Assembly (NCBI GenBank): GCA_050951925.1
Contig: JBMNJZ010000001.1
Coordinates: forward strand, 915,015-979,014
Direction: 5' to 3'
Source of the DNA: Saccharofermentanales bacterium
GTDB taxonomy: Bacteria; Bacillota; Clostridia; Saccharofermentanales; DTU023
DNA: 64,000 nucleotides
The notes under the pieces were generated by a model that saw only the letters and a list, made by a program, of their open reading frames with translations, ran no database searches and was not told the DNA's origin. This document shows, in pieces, positions 3,119 through 12,176 of this stretch. A program made the position numbers and the translations under genes. The number at the start of each line of letters is the position of its first letter. The first letter of the stretch is position 1.

Positions 3119-3850
3119 TCAGCCTCCGCTCGTCTTATTCTTGGTGATAACAAAGTTGTCCCAGCTGATTGTATGAACCACCTTTTGGGTAACGGTTATG
3201 GTCTTAACATTTTTGTTTTCTGTCCGTTCTTTCATTTCGCTTGAAGATGTGACCGGATATGAGGTGGCTTTTAATAAATCCATAGTCATAACCGCTGATG
3301 GCGAAGCATCTTCAATGCCGAAAGTGGTGGTTATTCTCATTTTTTGAGGATTGAACACCATCTTAGCTTCTACGGTTGCTATCTCCGATAAAATGTCGTT
3401 GCAGGTTATAGTGATAGTTAGTTCTGTTTGCGAAGCAGGCGGGTCAATGATTGCTTTTGCCCAGGCATTAAGGACCGCTTGCGGTACTATATTTTTTGCT
3501 GCGATATCATTGTAAACAGCTGGGTCTAATGAAGCTTCGGTCGATGGTGGGCTCTCTGACACCAGCTCATCCCAGTTATCATCATATACTTTCTCAGTGG
3601 TAGTAATGAATGTTTGCTCAAAGGAGATACTATCACCCTCAAGCGCATTTTTGAACATCATAACCGCGGAGCTTACCGCGAGGTAATTTTGTTCCTCGTT
3701 CTGCGTGTTTTTTACACGACCTATGTTGGAAAACGCAGTATAAATCAGAACCGCCGAAATCATGAGGCAAAGAATCAGGGCGACCAAAGCGAACACAATG
3801 GTCGCGCCCTGCTTGGACTGTATTTTATTCTTTAGATTACTTGAATTCAT
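3119..3850 (-). CDS. Minor pseudopilin-like protein lacking Glu+5
   Basis: The N-terminus is MNSSNLKNKIQSKQG|ATIVFALVALILCLMISAVLIYTAF, a basic leader, Gly, then a hydrophobic helix with Phe at +5 instead of Glu. The ATG at 3850 lies inside the last codons of the giant upstream gene. Confidence 0.65.
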   Translation of the reverse strand: MNSSNLKNKIQSKQGATIVFALVALILCLMISAVLIYTAFSNIGRVKNTQNEEQNYLAVSSAVMMFKNALEGDSISFEQTFITTTEKVYDDNWDELVSESPPSTEASLDPAVYNDIAAKNIVPQAVLNAWAKAIIDPPASQTELTITITCNDILSEIATVEAKMVFNPQKMRITTTFGIEDASPSAVMTMDLLKATSYPVTSSSEMKERTENKNVKTITVTQKVVHTISWDNFVITKNKTSGG

Positions 3851-6800
3851 GTAATCTCTCCTGAAGGGAAGTATGGTACTTAAATAGCCATATTCCGCCG
3901 TCTTGGTTTTTTATAATATTCTTGTTAGAGTTATTAAGAATGAATTTATTATTGCTATTGTCAAACAAAATCCTCCAAAAACTTTGGAAAAACAGATTGT
4001 GCATATCGCTGTAGTATTTAGCCCCATAAAGCCCGGGCCCGGATGTTGCACCACAGAAAACAGCATTGGTATTAGAGCCACCTGTAGGTTTTTTTATGTA
4101 TGTCTCGTTATGAGTATTAGAAAGCTTAAGGTATTCCGTGCCTACGCCGTCTGGTACGTCGTTCGTAACATCCCATAGCATCGTATTTTCGCTCACAGGC
4201 GAGGCGAGGTGATAATCATCTCCACCTATGTGCTGAAGATATACTTGTGTCGTAGTAACCGGATTGTCAGACCCGGGCCCGAGTCCGGGCGGCGACTCTC
4301 CGGTCATGCAATAGTATTCCGTGTCGCTTTCTCCTACCACCCTTGCGACAACAAGGTATTTTTCTTCCGTATTGGTAGTCGTGGGAAGCGGATCATCGTA
4401 AGAGGCTCCGCTGACAAATTTCAGATTATATGGTATCTTCCACCTCGCATATAGTTCTATATCCTGTTCCGGATTGATATTAAATTTACCATCCTCTGTA
4501 ATTCCTGCTATATCGCCGTCATCTGTGTAAATCGTTCCGTTAGTATTCAATAGTTTTTTGAGATCTTCACCATCGTAAACATACCAGCCTGCAAAGCTTG
4601 AGCTTGAGTCTAAAAGTGAACCCTTATCACTCATCTCAATATTCAAAGCAGAGAATGATTTATCCGTATTGGTGGATATGAGAGCCGGATCTACACCTTG
4701 ATCGCCGTTATTGTAGAGATAATGGTTATTTATATATTCTTCATTTTCCGTTGCCGTTCCGTCTAAGTTATAATGCTTCAAAATAAGCTTTCCGGTGCAC
4801 CAAAGCGCACGTAAATTGAGTACATTGCTGTCAAAAGTCCTTATATTGCCTTCGCTGTCAATATTAGTCTTATCACGCGCTTCTATTTTCAGTGCCTGAA
4901 CTTTAAAATCAGCATTTCCCGCATTTTGCGCTGTAGCTTCCAGATAGAACGGCGAAGGATCTAATGTGGCCATGGCTCTATAAATGTCTGAACTAAAGCC
5001 AACGGCATTCTCCTCCGGATTGAATTCGAATGTGAATGTCCAATTTCCACTCACCGTCATTTCGTTAGTATTAATCAAGTTATTCCATTGATCCCTCAAT
5101 ATGAGGTTCCAATTTACTGTATCTCCACGTTCCAGCCTCTGCCGTTCTCCCGGGTGCCAAACCTCAGGATTAATCGGCTCTGCCGACAAATTAACTATAG
5201 CGGTGACATCAACTTTTAATGTTGCCATATAATATTTGCCGCTATCTGAATATCTAAAGAGGATTATCGTAGGTGTTTCTGTCTTATCGATACCCGTTAC
5301 GGTAAGTTTGGAAATAATACCCTCGGTTTCGCTTGCGGATATTTCAACCTTGTCGTTGATACTTACGGACGGGTTATCGGCGAAATTAACCCATTCACCA
5401 TTGTCTTTTCTGATTTCAAAATTTAACACTAAAATATCTGTGTAACCGTCGCCGTCAAAAAATTGCACTTCCGTTTCATCGACATAATCGTCAATATCTT
5501 CGCCTGTAACCGCATCTGTATGATAAGAAATTAAATCCAACCCCATTTCGGACTCAGTCAATTCCAAGCGCCTGTTCTTAGGCCATTCGCCGTAGTGGAC
5601 ATATTTTTTGCCGCCCGGATATTCTTGCGTAATTACTGTGGCAAACGGATAGTCCTCACCTTCGAGCGAAGCTTCACCGCAGGGGAAGCTGTAGTTAGCA
5701 GTGACTTTGTGATAAGAATTCTGTGGGGAACCGCTATTCAAGTCATCGCAGAATTGCTGCAGTGACATATCGTCGTATGATTTCGAATTAATGCCGTTAT
5801 CTACCCAACCGGATTCAGCCGATGCTATTATCAGCTGGCCGGTTAGATAATTGTTAGCATAATAATAGCAGTTATTTAACTCGCCGCCTAACTGTTTTGG
5901 CAGTAAATTGTTCTCGTTATAGCATGCGTCACCGCCTATTACGGCAACCTTTACATTGCCTTCAGGCAGGGGTAAATCCATATAAGAATAGCAATTATAA
6001 TATTTCGGGCTTATAAATGCACTCGCCTCCTCAGCATGCATATTTACGGCACTGCATGTAAAGGCTGATGAGGCGATGCCGCTGATATAAATATTCAGTT
6101 GATCGGACTCGGGATAGATAAGAGAATGATTAACAATAACTCTGCCGCCGGAATAACAATTATTTATCTTGGTTTGATTTGTACCCGCGATACCTCCTAC
6201 AGTTATGTTATCTTTATAGCCTGAACCAACACTTGTGCCCCTGTTCCTATCTGTATTGATTCCAATTGTAGTTACGGCAGAGCATCTGTTTATATTTGTT
6301 CTGAGAACGCCTGCCAAGCCACCTATGGTTGCTTCGCCGCAAGAAACCGGCTGATTGCTTTCATCACTAATTTCATAGCCGGCAACCGCACAGTTTTCGA
6401 TCTTGCCATTGTAGTTATCATAGTCATCATCATATTCGTTTGCCATCCCCACTAAGGTGCCGATGGCATAATAGCCCGCAGGGCTTTCTGCAGGACGCTT
6501 AATTACCGCAGGAGTGTTATTTGAGTCCCTGATGAGTACGACATTTTTTATCGTAGAGCTTACAGTTAATCCGAAAACTCCTACCGAATAACAACTTGAT
6601 GTAATAGAAAGGTTCTTGATTTTATAACTTTGACCGTCAAAAGTCCCGCCAAACCAGGCAAAAAACGGTAAGCGGTAGCTCTTTCCCGATGTTTCTCCAA
6701 GGGCAGCGATCGGGGAATAGCTTGTTCTTCTGATGCACTCTATATCATAATCCTGAATGAAGTTCTGTCTTGCCCTTGATTGCCCGAAATCATTCCAGAC

Positions 6801-9800
6801 TTCCGGTTCCGCTTCCGCGTTATAAGTCCAACCTGAAGCATCACTATATTCTATCTGGCTTCCTTTCTTTGTCGCGTGCAAATAAGGGAAATAATTGTAA
6901 TTTGTTCTGCTAATCCGCTGATCACAATTCCTATTAACGCTGTTCCAGTTGATAAACTGCAGTTGGTCGAGTGACCTGATTCTGTATTTATTATTCCCCG
7001 TTCCCGGCTCGTATTGAGGAGCGGGTTGAGTACCGGCGTTATTCCATGTGTTCCAACCTGTGAGCTTTATTGATTTGGCGAAGAAAGGACAGAAAGTATA
7101 GTTTAGCGGATCGTCCTCCCCGGCTGTTAAAGTCACGGTAGCATTCTGCACATTCCCCGTCATGAACATATAGTTATCTTTATACAGGCGGCCATTAGCA
7201 TCAACGCCATTAGTTTTATATGAGGTAGCAAGATTAGTTTCATCACAAGTGGTATAGCAATAGAACTTATAGCCTGGATAGTTTTCATTAAAATATGAGT
7301 CGGCGGAAGCGTTTGTGGTTACAGGGTTGGTTGCAGATACATTCACATTCAGCCATGATACATCTAAGGCGTATGTTTCTGTGCCGCCGCCTTTTTTGGC
7401 AACATAATACCCATAGCCGTATTCTTTGACGATTCCTCCGGTGTTATGCGCCGTGCTTGTGGTGTTATGGTAAACCGCCTCGTATTCTCCGCCTTCGCCA
7501 TTTTTTCTGCCAACCATATAGATCTTATATCCCTGACCCTGAGCAGAGCCTCCAGTAACTTTTTCCCAGTAGAACAGACCGGCCTTACCGTATTCAGGTT
7601 CCTCTTCCGATATCGGCGGCAACCAATCGCCATAATGAGGGAGACCTTCTATTGATACATACGGGTATATGACAAGAAGCTCAAGGTTTTCTTTTTGATT
7701 GTTTTGATTATATGGATAGGTGTCAAACTCGTTTTCGTCGTCCGAAAAAGGACTTCCCAATAAAGTGGCAGCAGCTGCATTAGATGTGAATTCATATTTT
7801 TGAGAATCTTCTAGCTTATTATCTTCGGATCCGAAATAGTAGACATTCTGTACCGTTGTTGCGTCCGGCGCTGTACTGTATATGTGAGTCGCCTGTGACT
7901 CGGAACAGTTAAAGAGCGAATATGAATTGGTTATACTTGAAATGTTGTTGGGAACAAAGCCCGCTGCCGAATCAATTATGCCTTCGGCTAAACCGGTTTT
8001 CATTATTCCGAAACCTGCGGAGTATGAGCCTGAAATAGAGGATCCGGCAGTAAGTGCACCTGCCAGTCCGCCTATCTTGGAAGTCGATGCGCCTCCGATA
8101 AGGTATGAGTCAGCATACGAATTCTGTATTATAGCACTGCCGTTTGTTTTGCTGCCTATCAGACCGCCAATCGAGCCCGTTCCTTCGATGATCGTTGCGG
8201 CAAAGCTGTTTTGAATGGTTAACGTGGAGTCTGTCGAACTGCTGCCTACGAACCCGCCGACATTGGCAGTGCCTTTCAATAAGATATTGTCCGCATAGGT
8301 GCTTTCGGATGCAAAGTATTCTTTCTCAATATAAAGTCGGCAGTCTTTTATTGTAAGGTCTGAGGTGGTTCTTCCCGCCAGGCCGCCTACGTCCGTGCCG
8401 CCTTCTATCTTTTCGTTAACCAATGTAACGCCGGAAATATTAGTTCCTGCAAAACTCCCAAACAACCCCGCCGGTTCGGAGCTGTTGCCGATATGCATAT
8501 TAATAATTTTGAACGAGTCGGCAGCAGGCGGGGCAATATAGCCCGAATATGTCATTAAAGACGAGTTGTTGATCGGCGTGAATGTTTTATCTCCGTAAAT
8601 TGACTTCCAGAGGAACGGCTTTTCGAGAGACCAATTATCATCAGAAACATCGTTAAAGTCTATATCCGAAATCTGTTTTGCGGAGGTAATGGCATTCGCC
8701 GGCAAGCGTGAAGTTGATATGTTAAGATTCTGCAGATGTCTGCCATACGCTATATTGGCTTCTGTCGGGTTCTCCGGATTTAATGACGCGAATAAACTGT
8801 TTGTAGTTCTTTCTATCGGGCCTACGTCCGGAACACTGTTGTCGCTGCTTGAGACAGTAAATGATAGTTCTAAGTCTTCGCCCGGAATGAGAGCGCCTGT
8901 CCTTGGCTCTGCATAATCCGGTTCCCATGTTATAGCGCCGAAAGTGTCTTTGAAGTATTGACTTTGATTGGTTTCGGGGTCGACGTCAAGCTTATCAAGT
9001 ATAACGGACGCAGAAAATACTTTAGTTACTGGATCCGGGGTGACGGTCTGCAGGAGAGTGACTGTATTACCGCTTGTTTTTCCCTTAACTGCAAGCTTAA
9101 ATTCCAGATCACTTATATCAGAATCAGAAGGAAGAATCGCAGTCATATTCGCTTGCAAAATATCGGCATTGATGACATTCAGCGAGGCGTTGATCATATT
9201 GCCGCTTACATCCGCGGGCATATTCGCTTTGCCGCCGTAGTAGCCTATTTTATTATTCCCTTTCAGGCTATGCCTGGGATCCTTGAATCTTATCGAAGAA
9301 TCCCCGTTTAGCGTTTCATCGTTATCAATGTAATAATTGCCGGAAGATCTTTTTTCCGAGTAAAATGCCGAATAGACATATCCGGTAACAGGGTCAAATT
9401 CAATGACCCAATTATCATCACGTACATCCCCATCAATGCTTCCTGGAGGAAAAATAAAATCGACCAGGTCACTTGGAGTTGAATTACCAGGATTGTCTTT
9501 GTCGTGATAAAAATATTTTAAGTTACCAGGATTTACCGCAGCAGTGTCTTCTCCCCAATCGGCCGGTTTGACGTCGACTTCTCCAAGTTCTGTGGCCGTT
9601 AATAAGCTGTCTATTCCTCCCGATGCTTTTAACTCCTTAATTCTGTTCTGCGCGCTGACATACATGCTCTGGGCTATGTTGTCCAGCTTTGTTTGATTGA
9701 TACGGTCAACCAAGCCTTGAATGCCAATAAATGCGACACCGAGAAGAATCACTACGATCGCAACAACGATGAGTGTTTGAATCAGCGTTAAACCTTTTTT

Positions 9801-9833
9801 ATTTTTTAACTGGCTGTCAATTCTTGTTTTCAC
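3837..9833 (-). CDS. Giant (1998 aa) modular protein with a type IV prepilin N-terminus, two GLUG-like repeat blocks and a Listeria-Bacteroides-type repeat
   Basis: GTG start at 9833 with GGAGG 7 nt upstream. The N-terminus is MKTRIDSQLKNKKG|LTLIQTLIVVAIVVILLGVAFIGI (Gln at +5). The ORF is uninterrupted for 5994 nt. There are GG-hydrophobic-x-G repeats at aa ~440-650 and ~1060-1330, and FAGWYVYDGE...DIELYARW at aa 1747-1798. Confidence 0.85.
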   Translation of the reverse strand: MKTRIDSQLKNKKGLTLIQTLIVVAIVVILLGVAFIGIQGLVDRINQTKLDNIAQSMYVSAQNRIKELKASGGIDSLLTATELGEVDVKPADWGEDTAAVNPGNLKYFYHDKDNPGNSTPSDLVDFIFPPGSIDGDVRDDNWVIEFDPVTGYVYSAFYSEKRSSGNYYIDNDETLNGDSSIRFKDPRHSLKGNNKIGYYGGKANMPADVSGNMINASLNVINADILQANMTAILPSDSDISDLEFKLAVKGKTSGNTVTLLQTVTPDPVTKVFSASVILDKLDVDPETNQSQYFKDTFGAITWEPDYAEPRTGALIPGEDLELSFTVSSSDNSVPDVGPIERTTNSLFASLNPENPTEANIAYGRHLQNLNISTSRLPANAITSAKQISDIDFNDVSDDNWSLEKPFLWKSIYGDKTFTPINNSSLMTYSGYIAPPAADSFKIINMHIGNSSEPAGLFGSFAGTNISGVTLVNEKIEGGTDVGGLAGRTTSDLTIKDCRLYIEKEYFASESTYADNILLKGTANVGGFVGSSSTDSTLTIQNSFAATIIEGTGSIGGLIGSKTNGSAIIQNSYADSYLIGGASTSKIGGLAGALTAGSSISGSYSAGFGIMKTGLAEGIIDSAAGFVPNNISSITNSYSLFNCSESQATHIYSTAPDATTVQNVYYFGSEDNKLEDSQKYEFTSNAAAATLLGSPFSDDENEFDTYPYNQNNQKENLELLVIYPYVSIEGLPHYGDWLPPISEEEPEYGKAGLFYWEKVTGGSAQGQGYKIYMVGRKNGEGGEYEAVYHNTTSTAHNTGGIVKEYGYGYYVAKKGGGTETYALDVSWLNVNVSATNPVTTNASADSYFNENYPGYKFYCYTTCDETNLATSYKTNGVDANGRLYKDNYMFMTGNVQNATVTLTAGEDDPLNYTFCPFFAKSIKLTGWNTWNNAGTQPAPQYEPGTGNNKYRIRSLDQLQFINWNSVNRNCDQRISRTNYNYFPYLHATKKGSQIEYSDASGWTYNAEAEPEVWNDFGQSRARQNFIQDYDIECIRRTSYSPIAALGETSGKSYRLPFFAWFGGTFDGQSYKIKNLSITSSCYSVGVFGLTVSSTIKNVVLIRDSNNTPAVIKRPAESPAGYYAIGTLVGMANEYDDDYDNYNGKIENCAVAGYEISDESNQPVSCGEATIGGLAGVLRTNINRCSAVTTIGINTDRNRGTSVGSGYKDNITVGGIAGTNQTKINNCYSGGRVIVNHSLIYPESDQLNIYISGIASSAFTCSAVNMHAEEASAFISPKYYNCYSYMDLPLPEGNVKVAVIGGDACYNENNLLPKQLGGELNNCYYYANNYLTGQLIIASAESGWVDNGINSKSYDDMSLQQFCDDLNSGSPQNSYHKVTANYSFPCGEASLEGEDYPFATVITQEYPGGKKYVHYGEWPKNRRLELTESEMGLDLISYHTDAVTGEDIDDYVDETEVQFFDGDGYTDILVLNFEIRKDNGEWVNFADNPSVSINDKVEISASETEGIISKLTVTGIDKTETPTIILFRYSDSGKYYMATLKVDVTAIVNLSAEPINPEVWHPGERQRLERGDTVNWNLILRDQWNNLINTNEMTVSGNWTFTFEFNPEENAVGFSSDIYRAMATLDPSPFYLEATAQNAGNADFKVQALKIEARDKTNIDSEGNIRTFDSNVLNLRALWCTGKLILKHYNLDGTATENEEYINNHYLYNNGDQGVDPALISTNTDKSFSALNIEMSDKGSLLDSSSSFAGWYVYDGEDLKKLLNTNGTIYTDDGDIAGITEDGKFNINPEQDIELYARWKIPYNLKFVSGASYDDPLPTTTNTEEKYLVVARVVGESDTEYYCMTGESPPGLGPGSDNPVTTTQVYLQHIGGDDYHLASPVSENTMLWDVTNDVPDGVGTEYLKLSNTHNETYIKKPTGGSNTNAVFCGATSGPGLYGAKYYSDMHNLFFQSFWRILFDNSNNKFILNNSNKNIIKNQDGGIWLFKYHTSLQERLHEFK

Positions 9834-9976
9834 GGTGTACCTCCGCTATTCAAACGGCATTGACGGTTTAGTTCACTTGGCCTAGTTATAAAACTATTAT
9901 AATTATAATTGTTTGCATTATAAAATATTGCAACCGGTCTGTCATGTACGAATCCCTATTGCTCAATGTTTGGGCA

Positions 9977-10109
9977 CTTGAGTTTTGCGCCGTTGCGCTT
10001 CTCTAGGTCTGCCAGCAGTATTTAAGTGCGAGCCTCTAAAATAGATACACTCATCAATGCTGGATCTTATGTCCATGCTAGCATAGAAACGGCGCAAATT
10101 AAACTCAAG
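9977..10109. repeat. 18-bp inverted-repeat pair flanking a 93-bp segment, upstream of the pilin operon
   Basis: The left arm cttgagttttgcgccgtt (9977-9994) is the exact reverse complement of aacggcgcaa (10088-10097) plus aactcaag (10102-10109). The right arm carries a 4-nt insertion (atta). Confidence 0.85.
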
Positions 10110-10277
10110 GGTTCCCTCTCAAAGCAGGAACGACATATTTGGTATAAAAATGGTACAAAACAGCCGAAAGCGGGTAAGAAATCTAAAAGCAAAACCCGCT
10201 GAAATATCTATGTTCCAACGGGCTCGGACTTGGCATCGTACAATAAAATGAATACAATCCACTTGAAAGTATGTCGT

Positions 10278-10354
10278 GGGTGCATTTGGGTGTATTTCTG
10301 AAAACCGGGTGCACCGCTCAGTTTAGGGTGCATTCATTGTTGCAACAAGGTGCA
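10278..10354 (+). repeat. Array of five direct GGTGCA-type repeats plus a 12-bp palindrome
   Basis: GGGTGCA occurs at 10278, 10307 and 10326, GGGTGTA at 10288 and AGGTGCA at 10348. The spacings are 10, 19, 19 and 22 bp. The third copy is part of the palindrome GGTGCACC (10308-10315). ttgttgcaacaa (10337-10348) is a perfect palindrome. Confidence 0.8.
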
Positions 10355-10381
10355 TGGGCAGTATATGCCGATTCTGCTTCT

Positions 10382-11704
10382 TTATAGCAGATTGTCAATC
10401 TCCTCAAGCAGGAACGGGATGATTCCCACATAACTGATGCCATTTTCATCTGTGTGCATTTTTGCATTACCGCCTGTTACTACAAGTTTTCTAAATGAAT
10501 CCCCGCTTTTTAGGAGAGGAAGAATTTCTTGCTGATGTTTTTCCGCATCATGGATGCTGAAAGCGGACTGTATGTAGACCTTTTGGTTTCCCCTATTTAC
10601 TACAAAATCAATCTCGTGCCATCGTTCGGGGAGCAGCCTGCCAGCCACGGTTTTTGTAAAACGTACGGAACCCACATCTACCGCAAATCCACGAAGCACC
10701 AATTCATTATGCAAAATATTTTCCATCAAGTGAGTCTCTTCAATCTGTCGAAAATTCAGCCTGGCGTTTCGTAAGCCAACATCTTCCGCATAGTATTTTA
10801 CAGGAGAATTAAAATATGTCTTCCCTTTCACATCGTAGCGCCTGACTTTGGTAAAAAGAAACGCATCCTCTATCGCATCCAGGTATTTCTTTACGGTTTT
10901 ATCTGTTGTGCCCGCACGGCGAACTGAGTTTAAGGTGTTTGCCAGCTTTGATGGGTTAGTCAGGCTGCCAACATTGGAAGCCAGCACATCCACCAGGTCA
11001 TTCACATATGAGTCCGCCACCCGGTATCTTTCCGCAATATCAGCCACATATACTCGCTCAAACAAACTGGACAAGTACGCCTCTCTCTCCCTTGGGTTCT
11101 TTTCCAGCACGGCAAGCGGCATGCCGCCATACACCAGGTATTCTTCCCAGGCGTCCGCCTTTTCCATATCAGAAACGGAATAAAATTCTGCAAAGCTGAA
11201 AGGGTGCAGGCGTATTTCAATGCCTCTGTCACGGAAGTTGGTGGCAACGTCCTTGGACAGCATCTTGGAGTTGCTTCCGGTCACATAAATGTCCAAATTG
11301 CGTCGGGTCATCAAATCGCTGAGGATGTCGTAGAAGGTGGTGTATAGCAGTTCCCGATCTTCTTCAGGCACCTGACTTTCATCCACATCTAAGCGCTTGA
11401 CCTTGTAAGAGAGCTGAATTTCATCAATGAACAAATAAAACTGTTTGTTTCTACTTTCAATTTTTTCAACAACATACTGATGCAGGGTATTAGGGTTGCG
11501 CATGGCTTCATACTGTTTCTGGTCCAGCGCAATCTCAATGATCTGGCTGTCATCTATGCCTTGCTGATGAAGGTATTCTTTGAAAAGTCGAAACAGCAAA
11601 AATGACTTTCCGCAACGGCGTATCCCAGTAATGATTTTAATTCGACTATTGTGCATCATACTAATGAGACGCTTCAAAGGTCGCTCTCGATCAATGACTT
11701 TCAT
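10382..11704 (-). CDS. AAA+ ATPase of the AAA_14/DUF4143 type (function unknown)
   Basis: 440 aa. It has a Walker A GIRRCGKS near the N-terminus and a Walker B-like LFIDEIQ. The C-terminal half is typical of the widespread 'ATP-binding protein' family with a DUF4143 domain. There is an AAGGAG RBS upstream of the ATG. Confidence 0.75.
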   Translation of the reverse strand: MKVIDRERPLKRLISMMHNSRIKIITGIRRCGKSFLLFRLFKEYLHQQGIDDSQIIEIALDQKQYEAMRNPNTLHQYVVEKIESRNKQFYLFIDEIQLSYKVKRLDVDESQVPEEDRELLYTTFYDILSDLMTRRNLDIYVTGSNSKMLSKDVATNFRDRGIEIRLHPFSFAEFYSVSDMEKADAWEEYLVYGGMPLAVLEKNPREREAYLSSLFERVYVADIAERYRVADSYVNDLVDVLASNVGSLTNPSKLANTLNSVRRAGTTDKTVKKYLDAIEDAFLFTKVRRYDVKGKTYFNSPVKYYAEDVGLRNARLNFRQIEETHLMENILHNELVLRGFAVDVGSVRFTKTVAGRLLPERWHEIDFVVNRGNQKVYIQSAFSIHDAEKHQQEILPLLKSGDSFRKLVVTGGNAKMHTDENGISYVGIIPFLLEEIDNLL

Positions 11705-11718
11705 AAGGACTCCTTATG

Positions 11719-11821
11719 ACGGATTTCATCGATAGTCGATAAAATCCGTACTTAAGGTATAATTTTACACCATTGTTATTTTCTGCGCAAACCGGATTTC
11801 ATCGAGACTCGACGAAATCCG
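11719..11821 (-). repeat. Two related ~30-nt perfect or near-perfect hairpins/palindromes in the ATPase leader
   Basis: Copy 1 is at 11719-11749 (acggatttcatcga tag tcgataaaatccgt). Copy 2 is at 11793-11821 (cggatttcatcgag a ctcgacgaaatccg). The single mismatch in each becomes a G-U wobble only when read on the minus strand. Confidence 0.7.
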
Positions 11822-12099
11822 TCTTGATGACATAATAAAACCTGAAATGAAGATATCGGAGTAAGCATTTCCGACAACCACACTTTCTACTGAAAAAACC
11901 TGCTTAAAACGAGAAAAAATCAACCAGAAACAGAACCGACCCTGTGTTAGCTTGCTCACATTCAGATTATCGAACAATTCGTAATCGAAAAGTGCAAAAT
12001 TATAAAGCTGCAAGATGTTGAGACTACCGGTTTTCATGGTTTCAACATGAATGAGGGTGCCCAATTCACTTAATAAAGTGTTTTGAGACACCCCCGACT

Positions 12100-12176
12100 T
12101 GGTGGGTGGTAGTGGAGTCGAACCACCGACCCCCTGCATGTCACGCAGGTACTCTAACCAGCTGAGCTAACCACCC
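12100..12176 (-). tRNA. tRNA-Val (anticodon GAC), CCA encoded
   Basis: The reverse complement folds by hand as a cloverleaf: acceptor GGGTGGT/ACCACCC, D-arm GCTC..GAGT, anticodon stem CCTGC/GCAGG with loop GTGACAT, T-arm GGTGG TTCGACT CCACT, and 3' ACCA. Confidence 0.9.

Follow-up and report, generated by a model that had tools for sequence, protein, structure and literature searches.

A non-random inverted repeat upstream of a giant type IV pilin operon, possibly part of a fixed promoter-upstream module

Results

The window analysed here, a 64-kb stretch (64,000 nt) of DNA from a Saccharofermentanales bacterium, carries a giant type IV pilin-like gene on its minus strand (3837-9833; 1998 aa). 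The gene starts with a GTG codon at position 9833 and is the first of its operon. The N-terminus of its product is a prepilin signal, KKG/LTLIQTLIVVAIVVILL (also written KKG/LTLIQ), and a minor-pilin-like ORF with an N_methyl motif lies downstream (2259-2900). Upstream of the pilin gene are an AAA_14/DUF4143 ATPase gene (10382-11704) and a tRNA-Val gene (12100-12176), both on the minus strand. Read in the pilin sense, the 548-bp interval between the ATPase and pilin genes begins at the end of the ATPase gene and runs through an intrinsic-terminator-like hairpin (10225-10192, minus strand), about 75 nt of intervening sequence, the distal arm of an inverted repeat (10109-10088), a 93-bp segment, the proximal arm of the repeat (9994-9977) and a further 31 nt before reaching a promoter-like site; this is followed by an AT-rich 5' UTR, a GGAGG motif and the GTG. 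The terminator-like hairpin bounds the element on its distal side. In one of the related lineages described below (L125), such a hairpin immediately follows tRNA-Val.

The promoter-like site, located between the repeat and the pilin gene and outside the repeat itself, is of the sigma-70 type (9917-9945, minus strand). It consists of ATGACA (9945-9940), a 17-nt spacer and TATAAT (9922-9917), an 11/12 match, and predicts a transcription start near 9910. Since this site separates the repeat from the gene, the repeat would fall at about -67 to -199 relative to the predicted start, with the proximal arm at about -67 to -84 and the distal arm at about -178 to -199. The same site was recovered in three related lineages (L124, L125 and L263) where, as in the window, it is the sole strong promoter-like site on the sense strand and lies downstream of the repeat. 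Inside the 93-bp segment (9995-10087) no sigma-70-like site was found on either strand, in agreement with an earlier note on this DNA, and promoter prediction returned no sense-strand site between the terminator-like hairpin and the 5' arm. A sigma-54 reading of the TGACAG-N5-TTGCA sequence in the promoter block was set aside, its -24 element being without GG when judged by eye. Small ORFs overlying the element, such as a 58-aa ORF called by some pipelines (10026-10202, plus strand), were judged non-coding; the frame of the latter is broken by a 1-nt deletion in L125 and by indels in L263 and L126. As the earlier note had also remarked, no recombinase gene was detected: none of the 40 window ORFs scanned (the long ones at plausible gene positions, together with a 124-aa ORF) encodes a recombinase, integrase, transposase or resolvase Pfam domain.

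Direct reading of the sequence shows that CTTGAGTTTTGCGCCGTT (9977-9994) is the reverse complement of AACGGCGCAAA-TTAA-ACTCAAG (10088-10109, plus strand). Pairing between the arms thus comprises 11 + 7 perfect pairs, interrupted by a 4-nt TTAA insertion, or bulge, in the right arm, and 93 bp (9995-10087) lie between them, exactly as the earlier note had described. Both predicted folds lengthen the stem across an asymmetric internal loop by three pairs formed between GGG (9972-9974) and CCC (10114-10116), an extension likewise anticipated in that note. The distance from the left arm to the GTG is 143 bp, close to the estimate of about 145 bp given there. The positions of the two arms were also right, and only their framing needs to be changed: with the pilin gene on the minus strand, the "left" arm is the gene-proximal, 3' arm (pilin sense, AACGGCGCAAAACTCAAG) and the "right" arm is the distal, 5' one. 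Next to the distal arm, the enclosed segment starts with a lineage-specific spacer (10074-10087) that includes a 10-nt perfect palindrome, ATGCTAGCAT (10075-10084); the remainder forms an inner "deep core" (9995-10073, minus strand; pilin sense GACATAAGATCCAGCATTGATGAGTGTATCT...GCTGGCAGACCTAGAGAAGCGC). On the gene side, the proximal arm is joined to the -35 hexamer by a block (9946-9976, minus strand; GTGCCCAAACATTGAGCAATAGGGATTCGTAC) that contains a third CTCAA/TTGAG half-site. A 5-bp hairpin, CTCAAG...TTGAG, can be drawn just 3' of the proximal arm; it is weak whichever strand is folded, neither L124 nor L264 keeps it intact, and it was set aside.

An inverted-repeat search recovered the ungapped 11-nt core of the repeat. 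When the 64-kb window was scanned for exact 11-mer inverted repeats with a 7-mer extension, the bulge being limited to 4 nt and the loop to 200 nt, the pair 9977-9994/10088-10109 was the only one to emerge, and an equal repeat arose in 0 of 200 windows simulated with a first-order Markov model. The energy of the arm-arm duplex lies at z = -4.8 relative to shuffled sequences on both strands. The fold predicted for the element, closed by this stem, has a minimum free energy (MFE) of -48.6 kcal/mol (z = -2.4), matched by 0 of 200 shuffles. The repeat is therefore real and non-random, and the segment that it flanks has the inverted repeats expected of an inverton (18 paired bases, 11 + 7).

The earlier note had put forward a recombinase-driven inverton as its leading interpretation, and the orientation of the segment was accordingly compared among assemblies. 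Ten contigs of the same organism were collected from JGI, ENA, NCBI (GCA_002049705.1) and five SRA runs, all encoding an identical ATPase. Samples in which this exact locus occurs are JGI 3300060680, 3300065774 and 3300049643, ENA ERZ27280799, and SRA ERR7015089, SRR31129066, SRR12762293, ERR6189778 and ERR6088240. The 548-bp intergenic region is 100% identical in the ten assemblies and has a single orientation, the 93-bp segment reading as in the window in 10/10. Five Logan contigs, which are sensitive to polymorphism, traverse the element without a break; by our expectation, a population of mixed orientation would break such contigs at the arms. Three of the five stop at a common point, 615 nt into the pilin gene. 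Five lineages possess the core (window, L124, L125, L126 and L263), and its orientation relative to the pilin gene is the same in every one; all nhmmer matches of the element are likewise co-oriented with that gene. Altogether, the flipped orientation was found in none of the assembled contigs, that is, in 0 of the 10 identical assemblies and in none of L124, L125, L126 and L263, although a rare minority orientation may escape a comparison of assembled contigs.

The earlier note had also raised the possibilities that the arms belong to a generic repeat or that the element is the relic of a MITE, and the results speak against both. Even when up to 3 mismatches are allowed, the arm does not recur anywhere in the 64-kb window. 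An nhmmer profile built from the element and promoter matched only pilin-upstream loci among 1.86 Mb of sequence. A search of 185,579 species genomes for the arm pattern AACGGCGCAAAN{0,4}ACTCAAG gave 113 matches, each of them single and in unrelated sequence, against about 90 expected by chance in our rough estimate. None resembles the pilin-upstream region, and the source organism's own locus is not among the 113 matches, so that either the collection does not include this species or the genome representing it is without the locus. In metagenome contigs the pattern occurred at least 118 times, at chance level and, among the matches listed, in unrelated sequence. Searches of plasmids and phages with blastn returned no match, and two pattern scans of viral contigs none apart from one chance match. 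The element has no target-site duplication (the end flanks read GGGCA and GGTTC), nor was a clean empty site seen in relatives, which carry partly decayed orthologous versions instead. An Rfam 15 cmscan of positions 9700-10500 with E values up to 1 yielded nothing at the element and only two chance-level matches elsewhere in that stretch; a scan of the whole window at gathering thresholds returned three tRNAs only.

To follow the element in related bacteria, pilin homologues were traced to their contigs and the upstream regions were aligned with MAFFT (alignments A3 and A4). Homologous upstream sequence is present in six lineages in alignment A3: the window, L124, L125, L263, L264 and L126. 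Pilin amino acid identities to the window (BLAST) are 83% for L124, 81% for L125, 61% for L263, 56% for L264 and 63% for L126. As a neutral yardstick, the 4-fold degenerate sites of the pilin gene were compared with those of the window; their identity is 0.64 for L263, 0.67 for L264 and 0.63 for L126. The element is absent from L127, L261 and L262, where the pilin gene directly follows pilO; L127 and the N-terminal pilin fragments of L261 and L262 have only GGGATTCGTA and the ribosome-binding-site region in common. A search for further lineages through a neighbouring TetR gene ended at the closest lineage, whose contigs all stop at the tRNA, the next lineages having no pilin locus at that place.

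L124 and L125 contain the whole element. The distal arm is identical to that of the window at 23/24 positions in each, the spacer (10074-10087) at 14/14 and 13/14, the block 9946-9976 at 29/31 and 30/31, and the promoter at 29/29 in both. The repeat remains perfect in L125, where substitutions fall outside the paired positions; two lineages separated by about 10% at 4-fold sites thus have a perfect repeat. In L124 the proximal arm has four uncompensated changes (AAC to AGA, CTC to CCA), producing three mismatches and one wobble. The 4-nt bulge shows one change in each of the two lineages. Because local nucleotide identity (92-97%) is not above the background of the locus (about 90-95%), conservation in L124 and L125 alone says little.

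The remaining lineages are more distant and preserve the element unequally. L263 retains the core (57/73 identical positions, A3 columns 101-173), the proximal arm (21/24) and the promoter block, with the promoter at 29/29; its spacer is partial and its distal arm is scrambled (8/24). Identity of its block 9946-9976 amounts to 26/43, with 12 of the non-matching columns accounted for by a 12-nt tandem duplication (AGGGATCTGTGC x2), and to 26/31 without those columns. L264 has only the part from the proximal arm onwards (arm 21/24, block 27/32, promoter 27/29), the distal arm, spacer and core being deleted beside the stop codon of a neighbouring cbiQ gene. Taken together, proximal arm, block to the -35 and promoter are identical to the window at 75/85 positions in L264 and, with the 12-nt duplication set aside, at 76/84 in L263. 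Both lineages therefore keep a proximal arm that has no pairing partner. These identities exceed the 4-fold-site yardstick, and so point to purifying selection acting jointly on the proximal arm and promoter, whether or not the partner arm is present. L126 has taken a different course. Both arms and the core have diverged (distal arm remodelled, 14/24; proximal arm 15/24; core 50/73), the spacer is absent, and so is the promoter block of about 110 nt. The element of this lineage ends about 45 nt ahead of the ribosome-binding site. A Crp-family gene adjoins the element in L126 only.

The ability of the arms to pair varies accordingly. Relative to shuffled sequences, arm-arm z scores (sense/antisense) are -4.8/-4.8 in the window, -3.8/-4.8 in L125, -1.6/-2.65 in L124 and -0.3/+0.5 in L263, which has no significant repeat. 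They reach -3.8/-2.2 in L126, where the arms, despite about 40% divergence, have been altered together and are still complementary over 20 bp (20 pairs including two G-U). In the best pairings of L263 and L126, read by hand, mismatches are G-U on the pilin-sense strand, the L263 pairing being non-significant. Apparently compensatory pairs mapped by hand in L263 were discarded: by position, the paired stretch corresponds to the spacer of the window instead of the 5' arm, and its duplex has no statistical significance. Over the 18 pairs of the window's closing stem, 81% of cells are paired in the five sequences of the MAFFT alignment. The fold and covariation analysis suggested by the earlier note gave divided results. 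Four stem pairs are changed on both sides, all of them in L126, and covariation scores 0.239, compared with 0.138 for shuffled alignments (5/500 as high; lower in every slid control), with about three effectively independent sequences; however, the RNAalifold consensus is weak (-15 kcal/mol in total), its covariation term is unfavourable (+1.08), and the stem is absent in L263.

Discussion

Four things are observed at this locus: the inverted repeat itself, where it lies with respect to a conserved promoter-like site, an orientation that does not vary, and arms that are conserved to different degrees. We think that these features may best be explained if the repeat belongs to a cis-regulatory module that does not invert and in which a protein bridges two sites, a reading to which we assign a probability of roughly 0.4. 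The module would occupy the roughly 200 bp that directly precede the sigma-70-type promoter of the pilin operon. Within it, the proximal arm and the block that links it to the -35 hexamer would make up one site, deeply conserved upstream of the promoter and most likely recognised by a transcription regulator. The distal arm would represent a second copy of the proximal site, inverted, slightly interrupted and 113 bp away from centre to centre. A multimeric regulator bound to both copies could bridge them and so modulate the promoter; the distal copy would be an accessory that some lineages have lost. Two copies near a promoter, the proximal one conserved with that promoter in orthologues of about 60% identity, are what a dual-operator arrangement should present. 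This reading draws support from the fact that the sole strong promoter-like site lies downstream of the repeat, that the proximal arm is kept without its partner in L263 and L264, that the orientation of the core is fixed in five lineages, and that the element is single-copy and always linked to the pilin promoter. It is further supported by L126, where the arms changed in concert and the promoter block was lost, as might be expected if a single protein were co-evolving with them.

Several observations sit less comfortably with such a dual-site module. Because of its 4-nt insertion the distal copy is in two pieces of 7 and 11 nt, which is awkward if one protein is to read both copies identically. 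From centre to centre the copies are 113 bp apart both in the window and in L125, 110 bp apart in L124 and closer together in L126; in so few lineages, this is not obviously a helically phased spacing. The G-U mismatches on the pilin-sense strand in L263 and L126 form a pattern more typical of RNA. Finally, the module comes without a matching regulator or a known binding motif, and the start position is a prediction.

The earlier note had mentioned an RNA stem as an alternative, and this rival is a live one, if on the whole doubtful. The arms would form the closing stem of a pilin-sense RNA of about 135 nt, either a leader or an independent small RNA, acting after initiation. Such an RNA would tolerate bulges and a variable loop length. 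It would agree with the strong predicted stem, with the substitutions of L125 that avoid pairs and the single bulge changes in L124 and L125, and with the pairs changed on both sides and their covariation score. In L126, moreover, the 20-bp stem with its two G-U pairs obtains the better of its two scores on the sense strand, and the element is leader-like in its position ahead of the ribosome-binding site. Against this, the promoter is predicted to lie downstream of the element in five of the six lineages, so that by promoter prediction the element is not within a transcript. The window, L124, L125 and L263 have no promoter-like site on the sense strand upstream of or within the element, a terminator lies about 75 nt upstream, and the only promoter-like site of L126 overlaps the 5' arm, which would leave that arm untranscribed. 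The 3' arm of L124 has four uncompensated changes, and conservation of this arm without a partner in L263 and L264 is left unexplained by an RNA. The lack of an Rfam family at E values up to 1, the unfavourable RNAalifold term and the limit of about three effectively independent sequences weigh on the same side. A specific version, in which an undescribed RNA of about 135 nt is confined to the giant type IV pilin operons of Saccharofermentanales-like Clostridia, starts from an unrecognised upstream site, exerts post-initiation control and is being lost by lineages with a strong proximal promoter, strikes us as unlikely. Similarly improbable is that the pairing itself has no function, only the proximal arm and core being of importance and the distal arm being a by-product (of a template-switch quasi-palindrome mutation or of an old local duplication-inversion) that decays in some lineages. 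The loss of the distal arm from L263 and L264, which kept the gene-proximal parts, the four clustered uncompensated changes in one arm of L124, and an identity within the window clade that does not rise above the local background would all fit. Neutral decay, however, would erase complementarity, which is still significant in L126 after about 40% divergence of both arms, and the repeat is perfect in two lineages that differ by about 10% at 4-fold sites.

The inverton proposal, by which a recombinase encoded elsewhere would flip 9995-10087 and make pilin expression phase-variable, now appears very unlikely. In its favour are a significant inverted repeat upstream of a surface-appendage operon, the possibility that the recombinase is encoded far away, as RecV is for the flgB switch, and the matched change of the arms in L126, which would also be expected of a recombination site. 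On the other side stand the single orientation in ten independent assemblies and in L124, L125, L126 and L263, the five unbroken Logan contigs, the want of a promoter-like site inside the segment in either orientation together with a conserved gene-proximal promoter outside it, and arms made unequal by a 4-nt insertion. No recombinase domain was found among the 40 scanned ORFs, and a 93-bp segment is shorter than the classic switches named in the earlier note (fimS measures about 314 bp). That note had itself considered that absence of the repeat pair from homologous loci would speak against inversion. The pair is indeed missing in L263 (distal arm 8/24, z = -0.3) and in L264 (5' arm and inner segment deleted), though L263 conserves the core and both conserve the proximal arm. 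What survives of the original interpretation is a genuine repeat that is not due to chance and is associated with the upstream region of the giant-pilin operon; recombinase-driven inversion is not supported. The hedge on an RNA stem also stands, weakened by the downstream promoter and by the conservation of the proximal arm without a partner. Least probable of all, to the point of being negligible, is a MITE or dispersed-repeat relic with the arms as terminal inverted repeats. The 133-bp size and the terminal repeats are MITE-like, but there is no other copy of the arm in 64 kb, the profile matches only pilin-upstream loci in 1.86 Mb, the 113 pattern matches are close to chance and unlike the pilin-upstream region, plasmids and phages gave no match, there is neither a target-site duplication nor a clean empty site, and the core is orthologously conserved in lineages of about 60% identity.

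Comparison with known systems leads in the same direction. The flgB switch of C. difficile is a 154-bp segment with 21-bp repeats, inverted by RecV, which is encoded far away; it was first recognised when the genome of one strain was seen to carry the segment flipped. Since the same test is negative here, the inverton reading is weakened. Our element resembles flgB (Cdi4) and cwpV of C. difficile and fimS of E. coli in being a short segment that precedes an operon for a surface structure and is bounded by inverted repeats, about 20 bp long in general and 9 bp in fimS; as with flgB, the recombinase need not be adjacent. Unlike those three switches, for which both orientations occur among strains and in reads, it shows 0 flipped copies in ten identical assemblies and four diverged lineages. 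It also differs from them in that the arms are distinguished by a 4-nt insertion around a spacer of 93 bp and that some related lineages conserve a single arm. Finally, whereas fimS has its promoter inside and the flgB and cwpV switches lie in the 5' UTR, the conserved promoter here is downstream of the segment and none is inside. The element fails the inverton-defining tests that were run (orientation polymorphism, an internal directional signal and retention of both arms) and should not be filed as an inverton.

Promoters with dual operators that work through bridging or looping include lac (O1/O3), gal (OE/OI) and ara (O2/I1). Like these, the pilin locus has, ahead of its promoter, a pair of copies of one sequence separated by about 110 bp. 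The copy nearer the gene is conserved and would be essential, and the distal one would be auxiliary and dispensable. Differences from lac, gal and ara are that the distal copy is interrupted by 4 nt, that spacing among the relatives (113, 110 and 113 bp) is not phased, and that the sites are only putative. In our judgement, the element appears most like an arrangement of this kind, with a promoter-proximal and an auxiliary distal operator.

The c-di-GMP-II riboswitch upstream of C. difficile pilA1 is a cis-regulatory leader RNA of a pilin gene. As in that leader, our element is closed by a long stem upstream of a type IV pilin gene of Clostridia and, in L126, stands just before the ribosome-binding site. 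Unlike the pilA1 leader, it matches no Rfam model, the c-di-GMP classes included, five of the six lineages have their predicted promoter on the downstream side, and two lack the closing stem.

In conclusion, the setting of the repeat is an ordinary one, a control region upstream of a gene and specific to certain lineages, and phase variation is not supported. Finding inverted repeats upstream of a pilin gene is not sufficient ground for proposing a phase-variation switch. The inverton reading was reversed by two inexpensive comparisons, on whether the segment is flipped in other assemblies and on whether the arms are conserved together. Should the RNA reading be true, it would add a new pilin-linked RNA motif. 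The upstream module of about 200 bp offers a starting point for finding the regulator of an unusual and widespread family of pilins of about 2000 residues in uncultured anaerobic Clostridia.

A cassette between tRNA-Val and its terminator

On the minus strand of the window, a 1.86-kb cassette (10234-12094) separates tRNA-Val(GAC) from the tRNA-Val terminator. Its junctions, at 12092-12102 and 10223-10233, have the sequence CCAAGTC(C/G)G in common. The cassette carries an AAA_14/DUF4143 ATPase gene and a 124-aa ORF that has no Pfam match; no integrase or transposase was found within it. At L125, a related-lineage locus with homologous pilin-upstream sequence, the tRNA stands directly against the terminator with nothing between the two. 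In L006, a contig from the Logan assemblies of SRA data, the left end of the cassette (from window position 12095) is fused to an unrelated alcohol-dehydrogenase gene; therefore, unless this contig is chimeric, the cassette sits in two or more contexts. Within the right end of the cassette, directly past the ATPase stop codon, GGTGCA(T/C) is found five times in about 80 bp (10279-10356, plus strand). These copies could be protein-binding repeats or repeats marking the end of an element.

The TetR gene of the window has 97%-identical counterparts on contigs from several SRA runs, and all ten of those shown (L246-L255) end about 210 bp past their TetR gene, at the place where the window has the tRNA (200-270 bp past TetR). 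The L125 contig begins inside the corresponding tRNA. Assemblies break repeatedly at this tRNA: either the genome has several copies of it, or strains differ in whether they carry the cassette.

The terminator region can be drawn as two overlapping hairpins (10171-10225, minus strand) that have GCGGGT in common. The first forms the terminator-like stem GAGCCCGTTGG...CAGCGGGTTT, and the second, GCGGGT-N18-ACCCGC, has a T-rich tract directly after it. The two could be mutually exclusive structures.

The pilin promoter region and its neighbors

In the otherwise conserved block between the proximal arm and the promoter of the related locus L263, the 12-mer AGGGATCTGTGC is tandemly duplicated directly upstream of the -35 hexamer (2873-2896). 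This duplication hints that AGGGAT(T/C)(C/T)GT(A/G)C is a functional site in its own right. Past the -10 hexamer, the alignment of the window with its related loci (A3) shows an AT-rich stretch that is highly indel-prone. Comparison of window positions 9850-9905 with L124, L125, L263 and L264 (A3 columns 300-330) showed that these four other promoter-bearing lineages have a 5'-UTR hairpin, CTCAGTTGAAACTGAG, whereas the window lineage lacks it.

The giant type IV pilin-like protein (1998 aa; 3837-9833, minus strand) has Gln at position +5 past the prepilin cleavage site (G|LTLIQ) in place of the usual Glu, which many of its approximately 950 homologues have. A faint Glug match, in relatives, is the sole Pfam hit. 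Compared with L124 and L125, the protein diverges unevenly: a background of 90-95% identity is interrupted by blocks at 50-70%, a mosaic pattern that suggests recombination.

L126 is the sole lineage without the conserved promoter block. There, a Crp/Fnr-family regulator gene (L126 3118-3777) lies directly upstream of the inverted-repeat element and adjoins it, making its product a candidate regulator.
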